Source: Escherichia coli
GTDB lineage: Bacteria; Pseudomonadota; Gammaproteobacteria; Enterobacterales; Enterobacteriaceae
Direction: 5' to 3' (one strand)
Length of the DNA: 64,000 nucleotides
Assembly (NCBI RefSeq): GCF_009931435.1
Contig: NZ_CP043414.1
The translations under genes were made by a program, and so were the position numbers. Below, one piece after another: positions 15,352 to 19,360 of the stretch. Every line of letters begins with the position of its first letter. The first letter of the stretch is position 1. The notes beneath the pieces are model-generated. The model was given only the letters and a program-made list of their open reading frames with translations, was not told the origin of the DNA and did not search any database.

Positions 15352-15894
15352 TTAACCGAGGGTTTTGAACGCTTTAATGCGCTGCAAATGCGGGGAGATA
15401 TTCTTGAATTTGTGCGTCTGCTCTTCGTCCCAGACAATCTCGTAATAATGATGCAACTCTTCAGATGTCCGCTGGCTGTTAAGCGCTTCATCGTTACGCG
15501 ACAAAATCACCAGACAGCGATCGCGATTCTTCTCGCGGAAGTTGGTCACACACTTAGTGGTAATATCGGCATACTCTTCCGGGCGATCAATCTTGCCTTC
15601 CATGTTCTCATAAGGGAACAAATTAGGATTGAAGATCACCTGGCGGATATCGCAAAGAAAACCAATTCGCTCCGCCCAGTATCCGCCCAGACCAACGCCG
15701 CATATCAGCGGACGCTCATCGACGTTTAGTTGCAGCATTTTGTCCACTTCTTTGAGCAGATGCTGCATATCATGTTTCGGATGCCGCGTACTGTAGCTTA
15801 TCAAGCGTACATCCGGGTCAATAAACTGCAATTGTAAGACTTTCTCGTGGTTACCCGGACTGTTAGAGTCAAAACCGTGTAAATAGATAATCAT
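15352..15894 (-). CDS. ycfP: UPF0227 alpha/beta-hydrolase (esterase) YcfP
   Basis: Start at internal ATG ([18 protein letters not shown]) gives 180 aa. Confidence 0.88.
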
Positions 15895-15916
15895 CGCTTC
15901 CTCACATAAGCCAGGG

Positions 15917-16942
15917 TTAGTGACCTGCTTTCTCTTCCTGCCAGCGTTCATGTAACTGATTCAGACGGGCGCTGATCTCTTTCCAGCGAGCCGAGTCCAT
16001 CAGTTCCTGTCGCGAAAATGAACCTTTATGATACAAACGTGTAACACGTTCTGCCTTGATCGGTGACAGATTATCTAACACGCTGACGGCCCCTTTACGA
16101 TTATTGCAGACCAGGATCATATCGCAACCCGCATCCAGTGATGCCTGCCCGCGTTCGGCATAACTGCCCATAATCGCGGCACCTTCCATCGATAAATCGT
16201 CGGAGAAAATCACGCCGTCAAAACCCAGTTCCTGGCGTAAAACGGTTTTCAGCCAGTGGGGAGAACCGCTCGCAGGACGCGGATCGACATCACTGTAGAT
16301 CACATGCGCAGGCATAATGGCGTCGAGTTTATTTTCACGGATTAATGCGCTGAATACCGACATATCCTTGGCACGAATTTCCGCTTGTGGACGAGGGTCA
16401 CGCGGCGTCTCTTTGTGTGAGTCTGCCGTTACCGCACCATGCCCAGGGAAGTGTTTACCGGTGGTTTTCATTCCGGCTTCATGCATGCCATCAATAAAGC
16501 GGCTGGCCATTGCCAGGGCTTTTTCGGGATCGGCATGATAAGAACGCTCGCCAATCGCCGCGCTTGTGTGCCCGACGTCCAGCACTGGCGCAAAGCTGAT
16601 ATCAATATCCATAGCAATCATTTCGCAGGCCATGAGCCAACCGGCCTCTTGCGCCAGTTTTCCACCTTCTTCCATTCCCAACAGCGCAGCGAATGACTGT
16701 GCCGCTGGCAAGCGGGTAAAACCTTCACGAAAACGCTGCACACGCCCACCTTCCTGATCCACCGCCACCACCAGATGATTGCGCGAAGCTGCACGGATCT
16801 GGCGCACCAGTTCGCGTAACTGGGCAGGATCGTGATAGTTACGCGTAAAGAGAATCAGCCCTCCTACCAGCGGATGCGCCAGTATTTCACGCTCTTCCGC
16901 GTCCAGTTCGTAACCTTCGACATCCAACATTACTGGACCCAC
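15917..16942 (-). CDS. nagZ: Beta-N-acetylhexosaminidase NagZ (peptidoglycan recycling)
   Basis: 341-aa glycoside hydrolase family 3 ORF with KHFPGHG motif. Confidence 0.92.
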
Positions 16943-16952
16943 ACTGCTCTCC

Positions 16953-17777
16953 TTATTGTTTTATTGATAGCTGCCGCCAGGTGTCATCGGCAAGCCTGAT
17001 AAATTGTTGATCGCCGGTTTGTCGCCAGCGGTACTCAAACCACCCAGCTTTGAGCATCAGCAGCCAGGGAAACCATCGCCTGACCTGATGCCATAATTGC
17101 GCCGGATTAATCTTCGCGCGCGCGGCATAGTCATTAACCAATCGCCGATGCTGGTCAGTATTTTCCACCCACACCGCCGCCAGTTCCAGCGCGATATCAC
17201 CATCTCCGGCATACTCCCAGTCGATAAGTTTTAATCCTGACGCGCTATGCACTAAATTTCCGGCGTGGATATCCATATGCAATGGACACAAGCGTAAAGG
17301 CTGTGGTTCCCGCGCTTTGCGGAGACGTTTTAACATTCGCAGCCAACCCGCTGTCCGCCGCACCGGATCGCTTTGCTGCCAGTACAGTTCCAGTAACGGC
17401 AGCAGCGTTATTCGCCAGCCAAAACGCGGCTGTTGATGTAGATAATACAGCAAGCCTGCCAGTTCGTTGGTATCCGGCAAATGCGTTTTTACCTCGCCGG
17501 GCAGATAGTCGACCACCATCCAGTCACGGAGATATAAATGCGGCTTCGGTGCAATGCATGCGGGTAGTTGTGATAAAGCCCGATACTGGCGCAAGAACGC
17601 GAACCGCGGCGCATCAGGATCGTGCGGCTGACGCACAACAAAACGCTGGCCCTGATGTTCAATGAGAAAACTCCCGCCGCTAAGCCCACTATTAAACGTC
17701 GTGACGGGATGAAATTGCGGGAAAAAGCGCGACAGCAATTCGTCGCGCGTGATGGGATTATTGCTGCGAAACGGCAC
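16953..17777 (-). CDS. thiK: Thiamine kinase ThiK (YcfN)
   Basis: 274-aa kinase-like ORF with HMDIHAGN and [10 protein letters not shown] motifs; overlaps the lpoB 3' end. Confidence 0.88.
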
Positions 17778-18399
17778 CTTTACCTGACCAGATAATTTCG
17801 CCCGTCTGCACCAGCATTAGCTGCATTTGTAGGGTCGGAGCGTTAACGTTGCCAGAGGCGCTGGAGTACAGCACGTAATGAGCACCGACGTTGCGGGCAA
17901 TGCCTATGGCTTTACTACGGGTGCCTAAACTGTCCTGCGGCGACAAACCTAACTGTTGCTTAGCCATCGACAGTTGCTGGGCGGAAACCAGGGTAAATTT
18001 ACCGTTATTAGCCAGCGCATTTCGCAGCGTTTCGGTCGCTTCTGCGGCATTCAGCGAACCGTTAGTACGGTTGTTGACGCTATCAACCAGCAGGACGCTA
18101 CCCGCAGTCACGCCGTCAGCCCCAAGCATCTTACTGACCATCGGCTGCATTGCGCCATTCCAGTCATAATGGCGAATATGCGGCGCAGGCGGTGCGGTTT
18201 GATCTTCATGCTCAATTGGCCCTGGCTGCTGCGGGATCGTCGGCACCGAGGGCACTGTGGGCACAGGCTGTTGTGGCTCGGCAGGTTGTTCCGGCGCTGG
18301 TTTCACTTCTTCTACCGGTGCAGGTTCACGTTGCCCCACACACCCGGCGAGAAACATCGCCAGCGCGGCAATCAAAGCGTAGCGACTCATTTTTATCAT
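17758..18399 (-). CDS. lpoB: Outer-membrane lipoprotein LpoB (PBP1b activator)
   Basis: Lipoprotein signal with lipobox LAGC followed by a Pro/Gln-rich linker; 213 aa from the second Met. Confidence 0.88.
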
Positions 18400-18412
18400 C
18401 AAGATTCACCCC

Positions 18413-18790
18413 TTACAAATATAGATAAAGTCTGACTTTGTGCGCCCCCAGAAAATTGGCGCTGCCGTATAGCGTTACCGCCGAATGTGCGGGAATGGTA
18501 ACGCTGCGTGGCGTTTCCAGAGGATGCATCTCAAGTCCTCTGGCGTCATACCAGTAAAAACGATAATGAACGGTAACGGGTTCTTGCCTTTCGTTATAAA
18601 GCGTTGAGGATGCTGAAGGTTGAATATCAGACGTTGAAAGGACGGGCTTTTCTGCACTGATGCCCGCAGCCAATAAAGATGACTCCATCACCAGCGATTG
18701 CTCATCATTCACCGGAATTTCCGGATGTGAACGACAGCCCACCAGCACTAACAACGCCAGAGACACCAGCCCAAAGCATCCTTTTCTCAT
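18413..18790 (-). CDS. ycfL: Lipoprotein YcfL
   Basis: 125-aa ORF with lipobox LVGC. Confidence 0.85.
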   Translation of the reverse strand: MRKGCFGLVSLALLVLVGCRSHPEIPVNDEQSLVMESSLLAAGISAEKPVLSTSDIQPSASSTLYNERQEPVTVHYRFYWYDARGLEMHPLETPRSVTIPAHSAVTLYGSANFLGAHKVRLYLYL

Positions 18791-18792
18791 CG

Positions 18793-19152
18793 TTACAGAC
18801 CTTTATGCGCCAGCATTGGTCCCAGCGGACGGCCACCCAACAAGTGCATATGGATGTGATACACCTCTTGTCCGCCATGGCGATTGGTGTTCATGATCAG
18901 ACGATAGCCATCTTCGGCAATACCTTCTTGCTCAGCAATTTTTGCCGCTACGGTGATCATGCGTCCCAGCGCCTGCTCATGCTCAGCAGACACGTCGTTC
19001 ACAGTCGGAATGAGGATATTTGGAATGATCAGAATATGCGTTGGCGCTTGCGGCGAAATATCGCGAAACGCCGTTACCAGATCATCCTGGTAGACGATAT
19101 CGGAGGGGATCTCACGACGAATAATTTTGCTAAATATAGTTTCTTCTGCCAC
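18793..19152 (-). CDS. hinT: Purine nucleoside phosphoramidase HinT (HIT family)
   Basis: HIT histidine triad HIHMHLL; start at GTG 19152 gives 119 aa ([15 protein letters not shown]...); the track ORF starts 6 codons upstream. Confidence 0.85.
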
Positions 19153-19360
19153 GACATTTTCCTTTTTCAAATAGCCATGCGTTGCGCCATGCTACGCCGC
19201 GCCATACTGCGAGTATAGAGTATGGTCGAGTTAAACCTGCTCTTTCAACCTTAACTCACGATTTCTTAAGCAAAAAATCGTTTTACTGCCGTATATATCG
19301 TCATTATTCCCATTTCTGCCTGCGAATTCGCTGAAAAGACATTCTCTGTTTGGTTTACAC

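Follow-up and report, generated by a model that had tools for sequence, protein, structure and literature searches.

Nested transcription units and conserved hairpins downstream of the lpoB stop codon in the hinT-ycfP operon of Escherichia coli

Six packed genes in a known operon

The window analysed in this study is a 64,000-nucleotide stretch of Escherichia coli DNA (RefSeq assembly GCF_009931435.1, contig NZ_CP043414.1). Comparison of the window with the RefSeq annotation of the homologous locus places six ORFs, from hinT to ycfP, on the minus strand (Table 1). A preliminary description had noted these six packed genes and their spacing, and both were reproduced: all the ORFs were found, and the successive junctions measure 2, 13, -20 (an overlap), 10 and 22 nt, exactly as annotated in RefSeq for an E. 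coli genome of 98.2% identity, with the last 20 nt of lpoB shared with thiK. [quoted passage not shown] HinT, LpoB, ThiK, NagZ and YcfP all score far above NCBIfam equivalog cut-offs, and YcfL was identified by Pfam DUF1425. The ThiK match is full-length and exceeds both curated cut-offs (542 against 206 bits for NF007620 and 331 against 299 bits for TIGR02721). LpoB matches TIGR02722 over its full length, its Pfam LpoB domain spans residues 73-211, and the lipobox Cys20 is invariant in the alignment. A sequence search for a relative of YcfL with a solved structure returned none. Some details needed revision. The block had been drawn to 19170, which corresponds to an in-frame TTG upstream of the annotated hinT start, a GTG at 19152 that yields a product of 119 amino acids; and YcfP, which had been called an esterase, is a putative one by family name alone (alpha/beta hydrolase, UPF0227).

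Table 1. Genes, RNA structures and transcription signals of the hinT-ycfP region, in window coordinates
Feature	Position	Strand	Description
Operon promoter region	19183..19248	-	Consensus scan and K-12 start sites
hinT	19152..18793	-	Purine nucleoside phosphoramidase, HIT family; GTG start; NCBIfam NF007965, 264 bits (cut-off 206); RefSeq
ycfL	18790..18413	-	DUF1425 lipoprotein; Pfam PF07233, E-value 1e-26; starts 2 nt past hinT stop
Term-seq RNA 3' end in ycfL	18603	-	Projected from K-12 1162434; not Rho-dependent (Adams et al., 2021)
lpoB	18399..17758	-	Outer-membrane lipoprotein, PBP1b activator; TIGR02722, 218 bits (cut-off 110)
thiK	17777..16953	-	Thiamine kinase, APH family; GTG start within lpoB; NF007620, 542 bits
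HP1	17727..17748	-	GCGCGACG-AATTGC-TGTCGCGC then TTTTTCCC; thiK codons 10-17; 9 nt past lpoB stop
HP2	17671..17709	-	3' arm formed by thiK glycine-loop codons (GLSGGS), then GTTTTCTC; fold and species survey
thiK-internal promoter	17435..17447	-	-10 TATTAT at 17447..17442; projected start 17435 (K-12 1163602) for nagZ-ycfP, 101 reads
Rho termination peak in thiK	17270	-	Projected from K-12 1163767; thiK +507
Second thiK-internal start	17153	-	K-12 1163884
nagZ	16942..15917	-	Beta-N-acetylhexosaminidase, GH3; NF003740, 535 bits (cut-off 207)
nagZ-internal promoter zone	16007..16141	-	3' part of nagZ; projected ycfP start 16022 (K-12 1165015)
ycfP	15894..15352	-	Alpha/beta hydrolase, UPF0227; NF003431, 352 bits (cut-off 240)
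Operon end	15305..15340	-	10-bp hairpin GCATCAGGTA/TACCTGATGC, stem 15340..15311, no T-run
REP-type palindromic element, naRNA4	15211..15286	-	Rfam RF02564, 70.9 bits (gathering score 59.5); ycfP-ndh spacer

All but three of the 5426 complete E. coli genomes (5423) carry the block. Conservation of gene order, proposed earlier as a check, is borne out in the family: all six genes are colinear in 75 of 80 Enterobacteriaceae species, and the remaining five loci are truncated by contig ends. Median gaps over about 80 species are 2, 11.5, -20, 11 and 34 nt, compared with 237 nt between the block and ndh, the gene that follows. In 76 of 79 loci lpoB and thiK share exactly 20 nt, and thiK starts with GTG in 78 of 79. 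Among other Enterobacterales, hinT, a DUF1425 gene, lpoB and an APH kinase gene are retained, with nagZ next in most; the exceptions are one locus with nagZ displaced (L086) and one with no called ycfL (L088). In three more distant lineages ycfP is missing from this position, and one short distant contig carries hinT-lpoB-nagZ with neither thiK nor ycfL. The proteins evolve at different rates: over 77 loci, median identity is 81-94% for LpoB, NagZ, HinT and YcfP, 77% for YcfL and 62% for ThiK, the fastest-evolving product of the block (as low as 46% within one family).

With short or overlapping same-strand junctions throughout, hinT-ycfP has the form of an operon. Such packing is common nearby: of the 33 same-strand junctions within the 50 kb around the locus in an E. 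coli genome, 18 are 25 nt or shorter, and two neighbouring blocks, pabC-yceG-tmk-holB-ycfH and lolCDE-nagK-cobB, are likewise tight and mixed in function. The packing is non-random, yet typical of operons. The operon itself is already known: it is annotated, has been termed an operon in several papers (PMC3130732; PMC4974736; PMC11731830) and has been mapped with long reads in K-12 (PMC6131387), where genes, order and junction lengths are the same as in the window, at 98% nucleotide identity. The window, about 1.8% diverged from the closest of the 5426 complete genomes, does not differ in kind from the known E. coli operon. The operon as such is therefore of little import, having already been mapped by the long-read method that the preliminary description proposed, and similar tight, mixed operons are common nearby.

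Transcripts, internal promoters and Rho termination

Transcript data from K-12 MG1655 were projected by colinearity onto the window, which is 98% identical (window position = 1181037 - MG1655 coordinate), with thiK, nagZ and ycfP as anchors, and the projection was checked against one literature-derived offset in ycfL. The projected transcripts coincide with sensible features of the window: the thiK-internal start follows a -10 hexamer by 7 nt, and the transcript ends 6 nt past a hairpin. In SMRT-Cappable-seq data from K-12 (PMC6131387), the b1103-b1108 operon from start 1161854 was scored "same" as in RegulonDB, and the full six-gene transcript starts 31 nt upstream of hinT. Co-transcription of the block, as asserted in the preliminary description, is thus on record for K-12; variants covering b1103-b1107 were also detected. 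The K-12 starts 1161824, 1161853 and 1161854 project to 19213, 19184 and 19183. A consensus scan found a promoter-like TTGAAA-18-CATACT at 19248..19219, and the -10 element of the hinT promoter ends 6-7 nt ahead of 19213.

The same K-12 study listed as "novel" the units nagZ-ycfP and ycfP, with starts at 1163602, 1163884 and 1165015. At the first of these, inside thiK, TATTAT, 7 nt before the projected start, matches a sigma-70 -10 hexamer (TAnnnT, 5-9 nt before the start). No TTGACA -35 element was found at 16-18 nt spacing, and the site is absent from the consensus-scan output. The TATNAT pattern is kept in at least 73 of 78 species: its first codon is TAT in 74 and TAC in none, its second is NAT in 73 and NAC in none, so that synonymous codons ending in C do not occur, and a nearby His codon taken as a control is CAT in 41 species and CAC in 37. 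The surroundings of the second thiK-internal start showed no synonymous-site conservation. In the nagZ promoter zone, TTG TAT CAT AAA GGT (16036..16022) is nearly invariant, the consensus scan returned a promoter-like TTGCGA-16-AATAAT at 16127..16100, and synonymous constraint is the strongest of the operon (z 3.9). Another peak (z 3.4) covers lpoB codons 202-208, where thiK has its ribosome-binding site and GTG start. Synonymous conservation at the two internal promoters, across genera and about 78 species, was found in this analysis.

Transcription is also interrupted inside thiK. Adams et al. (2021, Supplementary file 2) reported a Rho-termination region in K-12 thiK, with upstream/downstream reads of 182/51 in untreated cells and 96/85 with bicyclomycin (Rho score 3.16, p 1e-7). 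The Rho-dependent drop in coverage amounts to 72%. In the same data, a further Rho region lies downstream of the operon and projects to 15123. The Term-seq 3' end in ycfL sits in the most C-rich, G-poor stretch of the operon.

At the operon end, 53 of 101 SMRT-Cappable-seq reads from start 1163602 end at K-12 1165732. This position projects to 15305, 6 nt beyond the post-ycfP hairpin, with the tail GTTCCAGATT. No other conserved structure in the operon is as stable as this hairpin. Dar and Sorek (2018; PMC6061677) described stem-loops that protect the 3' ends of transcripts terminated by Rho, and the post-ycfP hairpin fits this type exactly: a stable stem, no U-run, a transcript end 6 nt further on, and a Rho region downstream.

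Strong internal promoters or terminators had been named beforehand as evidence against a single unit. That evidence is in part at hand, in the form of starts within thiK and nagZ and Rho termination in thiK, and the full transcript stands nonetheless. A simple operon with a single promoter and a single terminator does not describe the locus, given its internal starts and Rho region. Since the full transcript, the internal starts and Rho termination in thiK occur together, the block is better described as nested transcription units. We regard as highly improbable either extreme, namely a single-promoter operon with uniform co-expression or six independent genes packed by genome streamlining. 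The tight spacing and the lack of an excess of consensus promoters or terminators in the scan speak for the former, and the internal starts and Rho termination for the latter; published K-12 data already contradict both, because a full-length transcript co-occurs with internal starts and the 72% drop in thiK, and the conservation of the internal promoters tells against them as well. The "operon variants" of Yan et al. (2018) and the neighbouring operons have similarly tight or overlapping junctions, dissimilar functions and nested transcripts. In hinT-ycfP, the operon examined in this respect, the internal promoters lie within coding regions and are recognisable by synonymous conservation in about 78 species.

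Two hairpins after the lpoB stop codon

HP1 combines a GC-rich 8-bp stem, six of its pairs being G-C, with a 6-nt loop, and was detected both as a terminator-like scan match and by folding. Its pairing is retained in 94.7% of pair cells in 78 species, and sliding the partner lowers this to 15-56%. At one pair, 48 species have C-G, 22 have U-A and 8 have U-G, and none is unpaired, with at least six changes on each side on the tree. Compensatory changes recur at synonymous sites, C-A mismatches occur in 0 of 78 sequences, and pairing is further kept by co-varying amino-acid replacements (GAC/GTC, GAAAC/GTTTC, TCA/TGA). Lineages without HP1 have another strong hairpin close by; distant lineages carry, at a similar place, CCGGCGGA-TTAT-TCCGCCGG followed by TTGTGTTTTT. 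On this comparative evidence, the stems of HP1 and of the alternative hairpin in distant lineages are maintained partly by compensatory amino-acid changes in ThiK.

HP2 folds to -29.3 kcal/mol in its native form, against -19.1 kcal/mol for synonymous recodings (median z -2.9), and z lies below -2 in 80% of 77 loci, compared with 3.8% of control windows; it is the third most stable conserved position of 3936 in the operon. In the window it is weaker than in other genera, owing to an A-C mismatch that is absent from the closest complete E. coli genome examined (L001); in Enterobacter or Klebsiella it attains about -30 kcal/mol. Its 5' arm lies at non-homologous columns across genera, and RNAalifold gave no consensus. 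HP1 retains a folding energy of about -9.7 kcal/mol after synonymous recoding (median z -1.35). Viewed without other species, the window has about eight similar local hairpins, HP1 among them, and the 106-nt fold is not significant (z -1.29).

Judged from base-pair covariation for HP1 and the synonymous-recoding test for HP2, both hairpins, just past the lpoB stop inside thiK, are under structural selection. They could instead be by-products of protein sequence and composition with no RNA role, Arg codons giving rise to CGCG palindromes and glycine-loop codons pairing with Pro/Ala codons. This would be in keeping with the stability of the recoded HP1 and its small z, with the displaced 5' arm and missing consensus of HP2, and with the lack of an experimental 3' end. 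We consider it unlikely, since native HP2 exceeds its recodings by about 10 kcal/mol in 80% of species, HP1 pairs change in compensation at synonymous sites with no C-A mismatch, amino-acid replacements co-vary so as to keep pairs, and lineages that lack HP1 have a strong hairpin nearby.

A second question is whether the hairpins act as partial intrinsic (Rho-independent) terminators, or as an attenuator, that would set thiK below hinT-ycfL-lpoB. HP1 shares with such elements its stem, its loop and its TTTTTCCC tail; it conforms to a rule-based terminator definition in the window and in 33 of 79 loci, T-rich runs follow both hairpins (TTTTTCCC and GTTTTCTC), and the hairpin of the distant lineages also precedes a run, TTGTGTTTTT. 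Against this, the T-tract of HP1 is short and interrupted by A in most species, the commonest tail being TATTTCCC and only 21 of 78 having at least five uninterrupted T; within the tract TTC outnumbers TTT by 45 to 33; and terminator-like matches in the 9-kb region number 6, against 10 expected from shuffles. Nor do the published K-12 maps examined report termination here: no RNA 3' end in the range 11632xx-11634xx appears in the Term-seq list of Adams et al. (2021) or among the SMRT-Cappable-seq ends, lists that are insensitive for this weakly expressed operon, the Term-seq list missing even the operon's own 3' end. A variant comprising hinT-ycfL-lpoB only is likewise absent from the K-12 SMRT-Cappable-seq operon table. 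Partial termination at HP1/HP2 thus seems to us rather improbable. A clearly C-rich, G-poor stretch was not found after HP2.

Intercistronic hairpins that stabilise mRNA are known, for example the REP elements in malEFG. HP1 and HP2 resemble the stem-loops of Dar and Sorek (2018) in being stable conserved stems upstream of a Rho region, here in thiK. They differ from them in lying inside a coding region (thiK codons 10-36) rather than in a spacer, in the short T-run of HP1, and in having no mapped 3' end. Most likely, HP1 and HP2 serve as a barrier that protects the hinT-ycfL-lpoB RNA, a role we propose from sequence comparison. More tentatively, the first 110 nt of thiK may be an undescribed conserved RNA "punctuation" element that uncouples hinT-ycfL-lpoB from thiK as a 3'-exonuclease barrier, a partial terminator or both, in which case thiK would largely be a regulatory spacer of an envelope operon.

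The mix of functions and the place of thiK

The preliminary description had called the functions of the six genes unrelated and their co-transcription unexplained. This was too strong for most of the block. LpoB and NagZ both act on peptidoglycan, NagZ in its recycling (PMC4974736), D-alanine dehydrogenase activity depends on HinT (PMC3130732), and YcfL belongs to the lipoproteins; the statement holds for thiK, the one real outlier, whose deletion in E. coli leaves a TPP-riboswitch reporter no longer repressed by thiamine in vivo (PMC4112796). Because it is missing from the distant hinT-lpoB-nagZ contig and is the fastest-evolving gene, thiK looks like a lineage-specific passenger. This reading draws on one short contig and on rate differences, and loss in that lineage is equally possible.

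A functionally coherent block would require ThiK to have a second substrate in cell-wall or amino-sugar metabolism, for which it would be kept between an activator of murein synthesis and a murein-recycling hydrolase. Of the Enterobacterales loci examined that have sufficient flanking sequence, all do carry an APH-type kinase after lpoB, except L089 (AT-rich, 27% GC) and L082 (a short contig with ndh after lpoB), the overlap of its start with lpoB is nearly invariant, and there is neither a solved structure nor a close characterised relative to limit its substrate range. The deletion phenotype, however, concerns thiamine and the TPP riboswitch, ThiK is an NCBIfam equivalog at 542 bits and the least constrained protein of the block, and thiK is missing from the distant contig, is set off from lpoB by hairpins and is subject to internal Rho termination. 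We therefore hold a second substrate to be very unlikely.

The explanation that we consider probable is that of nested transcription units with a mostly historical mix of functions. Promoters 31-61 nt upstream of hinT would produce a message able to span six genes, as in K-12, and much of this transcription would be halted by Rho inside thiK, as the published data indicate. The conserved thiK-internal promoter would then re-supply nagZ-ycfP, and the nagZ-internal one would supply ycfP, the starts being taken from K-12 and the conservation from this analysis. Each gene has its own ribosome-binding site, and the GTG start of thiK falls within the last part of lpoB. Three or four of the products probably touch murein metabolism, and hinT, lpoB and nagZ are linked even in the distant contig that lacks thiK and ycfL. 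The fast-evolving thiK would be a passenger held in place by two constraints, the overlap of its 5' end with lpoB and the nagZ promoter within its coding sequence. Finally, HP1 and HP2 most likely mark and protect the 3' end of the hinT-ycfL-lpoB RNA that remains once Rho has stopped transcription in thiK.

The comparative evidence suggests an ancient origin and a function for the two internal starts, which have been reported only once, in K-12. The RNA structure after lpoB could set the ratio of LpoB, the activator of PBP1b, to the downstream products. LpoB dosage affects beta-lactam tolerance, and lpoB was a top hit for meropenem sensitivity (PMC11731830); a cis element controlling lpoB mRNA would for this reason, if confirmed, be of some practical interest.

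Packing and gene order of the block

The preliminary description reported six packed genes, with gaps of 2 to 22 nt and a 20-nt overlap of lpoB and thiK. Both the ORF calls in the window (junctions from hinT to ycfP of 2, 13, -20, 10 and 22 nt) and the RefSeq annotation of an E. coli chromosome at 98.2% identity, in which the layout is identical, bear this out. Its upper limit has to be corrected: 19170 is an in-frame upstream TTG, and the annotated hinT start is at 19152. Five products of the block matched NCBIfam equivalog models far above cut-off. The name esterase given to YcfP stands as a family label and not as a demonstrated activity, the match being only to alpha/beta hydrolase, UPF0227. 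Searches of solved structures with ThiK and YcfL returned zero matches.

Features of the block, with K-12 measurements and their projected positions
Feature	Window position	Strand	K-12 coordinate	Remarks
hinT	19152..18793	-		ORF, GTG start
ycfL	18790..18413	-		ORF; DUF1425 lipoprotein
lpoB	18399..17758	-		ORF
thiK	17777..16953	-		ORF, GTG start
nagZ	16942..15917	-		ORF, GTG start
ycfP	15894..15352	-		ORF; alpha/beta hydrolase, UPF0227
HP1	17748..17727	-		Terminator-like hairpin (scan), 9 nt past lpoB stop, thiK codons 10-17
HP2	17709..17671	-		Longer hairpin
thiK-internal -10	17442..17447	-
Start site, b1103-b1108			1161854	Scored 'same' as RegulonDB (PMC6131387 Supplementary Data 2)
Start site, b1103-b1107			1161853	PMC6131387 Supplementary Data 2
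Start site, b1103-b1107	19213		1161824	PMC6131387 Supplementary Data 2
Start site, nagZ-ycfP	17435		1163602	'Novel', within thiK (PMC6131387 Supplementary Data 2)
Start site, nagZ-ycfP			1163884	'Novel', within thiK (PMC6131387 Supplementary Data 2)
Start site, ycfP	16022		1165015	Within nagZ (PMC6131387 Supplementary Data 2)
Rho-independent 3' end	18603	-	1162434	Within ycfL (PMC7815308)
Rho region, peak			1163767	Within thiK (PMC7815308)
Transcript end	15305		1165732	PMC6131387 Data 1
Rho region			1165914	Past ycfP (PMC7815308)
naRNA4 element	15211..15286	both		REP-type palindrome, ycfP-ndh spacer

The packing of the block is non-random yet ordinary. In 50 kb around the homologous E. coli locus, 18 of 33 same-strand junctions measure 25 nt or less, and two nearby blocks, pabC-yceG-tmk-holB-ycfH (gaps of 2, -11, -4 and 10 nt) and lolCDE-nagK-cobB, are equally tight and mixed in function. 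A consensus scan found no excess of promoter-like sites (8 versus 9.5 expected) or terminator-like sites (6 versus 10 expected). The 50 kb around the locus in E. coli NZ_CM148325.1 carries many envelope genes and tight mixed-function operons, ldtC and ycfJ included; nagK, encoding the kinase that follows NagZ in GlcNAc recycling, lies there about 13 kb from the block, within a lipoprotein-transport operon.

Gene order was assessed by an LpoB-alignment scan of species-representative genomes, of which the best 80 matches were all Enterobacteriaceae. In the conservation check proposed earlier, all six genes are colinear, and followed by ndh and ycfJ, in 75 of these best 80 loci, the other 5 being truncated contigs. 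The median gaps are 2, 11.5, -20, 11 and 34 nt, versus 237 nt ahead of ndh. Among the loci from these matches, 76 of 79 have an lpoB/thiK overlap of exactly 20 nt, and thiK starts with GTG in 78 of 79. Median identity to the window was 94% for HinT, 77% for YcfL, 81% for LpoB, 62% for ThiK (range 46-93%), 90% for NagZ and 94% for YcfP; ThiK is by far the least constrained protein of the block and changes much faster than its neighbours. Even within records labelled Escherichia, ThiK is 86-93% identical versus 94-99% for its neighbours.

Sampling of more distant LpoB homologues (30-63% identity) went contig by contig, several of the contigs (L082, L090 and L091) being too short to inform. Most Enterobacterales-like contigs sampled keep hinT, DUF1425, LpoB, the APH kinase and the GH3 enzyme, with ycfP variable. 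In L082 (702..2006) lpoB lies immediately ahead of ndh, in L086 (9523..10401) nagZ is displaced by two EamA-family fragments, an AT-rich contig (L089, 27% GC) keeps only hinT and lpoB, and a contig of 41% GC has hinT-lpoB-nagZ without ycfL or thiK. Given this varied order, hinT-lpoB(-nagZ) is the most persistent linkage, and thiK is either a lineage-specific addition or a gene lost in the lineage of the 41% GC contig.

Within E. coli the block is found in 5423 of 5426 complete genomes. Over 15150..19520 the best of these are 98.2-98.6% identical to the window, evenly across the six genes, so that the lineage of the window has no close relative among the complete genomes of that collection; the species representative 'Escherichia sp. 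MOD1-EC7003' is 94% identical. In NZ_CM169999.1 (E. coli strain N96) the operon matches in two pieces with an IS110-like IS621 transposase annotated beneath, which suggests that an insertion lies within the block or next to it.

K-12 transcripts and internal promoters

The six-gene operon is already known, and is an ordinary one; the interpretation placed on it in the preliminary description is supported in part. The long-read mapping suggested in the preliminary description has been published for K-12 by SMRT-Cappable-seq, which lists the six-gene unit (PMC6131387). The co-transcription considered unexplained there is real, since a full b1103-b1108 unit exists in K-12, and it is accompanied by nested units rather than forming one plain unit (PMC6131387, PMC7815308). 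As to the strong internal promoters or terminators that were to argue against a single operon, start sites occur in thiK and nagZ and a Rho region in thiK, and the full-length transcript is still recorded. At the Rho peak in thiK, upstream and downstream reads are 182 and 51 untreated, and 96 and 85 with bicyclomycin (PMC7815308). Full-length and nested transcripts, and Rho termination in thiK, are established by this K-12 literature.

All start sites and ends used here are K-12 measurements projected by colinearity onto the window of this strain (window = 1181037 - K-12 coordinate; gene lengths are identical). The rule was checked with the literature offset, which puts the ycfL start at 1162247, and the positions at which thiK, nagZ and ycfP begin in K-12 agree with it. 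The projected features land on sensible sequence: start site 19213 falls 6-7 nt past the predicted -10 of TTGAAA-18-CATACT (consensus scan), start site 17435 falls 7 nt past TATTAT, and the transcript end 6 nt past a perfect 10-bp hairpin that lacks a T-run and has a Rho region downstream of it. The ycfP-terminal hairpin, with its stem, no T-run, nearby 3' end and Rho downstream, has the arrangement that Dar and Sorek describe for Rho-terminated transcripts (PMC6061677). Downstream of that hairpin lies the naRNA4 palindrome (70.9 and 47.3 bits on the two strands), the sole match in an Rfam scan of 15000..19600. The 3' end within ycfL projects to the operon's most C-rich, G-poor stretch (C/G >2, 18654..18553), with no hairpin evident near it.

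Two of the internal promoters are conserved at their synonymous sites, a finding of this analysis. Of 78 sequences, 74 have TAT as the first codon of the thiK-internal -10 and none has TAC; at the second codon 73 have NAT and none has NAC. A control His codon two positions further on is split between 41 CAT and 37 CAC. No comparable synonymous conservation is seen at the second start site in thiK. In nagZ, the synonymous sites of TTG TAT CAT AAA GGT (16036..16022) are nearly invariant, and a synonymous-constraint map of the six genes ranks nagZ codons 268-312 (16141..16007) first; their peak, at z 3.9, lies a short way upstream of start site 16022. The end of lpoB ranks second (z 3.4), and both the GTG start of thiK and its ribosome-binding site lie there. 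Both internal start sites with near-frozen synonymous sites are sites reported once, in K-12.

Two hairpins at the 5' end of thiK

HP1 and HP2 (together 17671..17748, minus strand, first 36 thiK codons) are, as the comparative data indicate, under structural selection, with covariation demonstrated for HP1. Across 78 aligned species, 94.7% of the HP1 pair cells are paired; sliding the partner lowers this to 15-56%. Two synonymous third positions form a pair that is C-G in 48 species, U-A in 22, U-G in 8 and mismatched in none, and a neighbour-joining tree gives at least 6 changes on either side of this pair. Amino-acid replacements or a change of register preserve the stem in some genera (GCGCGAC/GTCGCGC, ACGCGTCA/TGACGCGT, GCGCGAAAC/GTTTCGCGC). 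The signal from synonymous recoding is modest (native -14.1 versus -9.7 kcal/mol, median z -1.35), with z < -2 in 26% of species versus 3.8% of control windows. A palindromic protein-binding DNA site in place of an RNA hairpin was ruled out by U-G wobbles on the sense strand only, by the register shifts between genera and by the use of another hairpin site in some lineages.

In HP2 the glycine-loop codons of thiK have variable codons lying upstream as their pairing partners. The hairpin reaches -29.3 versus -19.1 kcal/mol for synonymous recodings (median z -2.9), with z < -2 in 80% of 77 loci; in Enterobacter or Klebsiella its stability is about -30 kcal/mol, and in the window it carries an A-C mismatch. 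RNAalifold found no consensus for HP2, because its 5' arm lies in differing alignment columns between genera. A 30-nt stability profile, covering 3936 positions in 72 species, gives the ycfP-terminal hairpin, HP1 and HP2 as the three most stable conserved sites.

That the hairpins have no role at the RNA level is somewhat unlikely. Single-sequence folds of the window are non-significant (z 0.17 for 91 nt, -1.29 for 106 nt), the 90-nt stretch past lpoB ranks 147 of 629, and HP1 is one of about 8 comparable local hairpins in the window. A partial intrinsic terminator is an unlikely role. The T-run after HP1 is broken in most species. Lineages lacking HP1 have, some 35 nt further along, another GC hairpin with a T-rich run behind it, one variant of which carries a compensatory pair of non-synonymous changes. 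Control of thiK translation is more doubtful still. The Rfam scan found no riboswitch or known RNA family at either hairpin. We tentatively regard a 3' barrier as the likeliest of the four readings, though still below even odds. The K-12 lists (Adams 2021, SMRT-Cappable-seq) contain no 3' end at HP1 or HP2, which is weak evidence since they overlook even the operon's own end. A search for a C-rich Rho-loading stretch downstream of HP2 found none. Literature searches on lpoB with sRNA, Hfq or terminator returned nothing, and no description of HP1 and HP2 was found in Rfam or the literature searched.

Functions and proposed working of the operon

LpoB is an activator of PBP1b, and murein contains D-alanine. 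NagZ acts in murein recycling (PMC4974736), and D-alanine dehydrogenase activity in vivo needs HinT (PMC3130732). The six functions are less unrelated than the preliminary description has it: LpoB and NagZ are both concerned with murein, HinT has its D-alanine link and YcfL is a lipoprotein; ThiK is the outlier. Deletion of thiK leaves a TPP-riboswitch reporter no longer repressed by thiamine (PMC4112796), and the thiamine role of ThiK thus has in vivo support.

The present analysis establishes the conserved order and spacing, the conserved internal promoters and the two selected hairpins. In the working that we propose, polymerases from hinT would often be terminated by Rho within a poorly translated thiK, and exonuclease trimming back to HP2 or HP1 would leave a stable hinT-ycfL-lpoB RNA, while the output of nagZ and ycfP would be supplemented by their own promoters. 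What keeps thiK where it is may be the entanglement of its two ends, with the coding sequence of lpoB and with the promoter of nagZ. To a known operon, the conservation of the promoters and the hairpin element are small additions.
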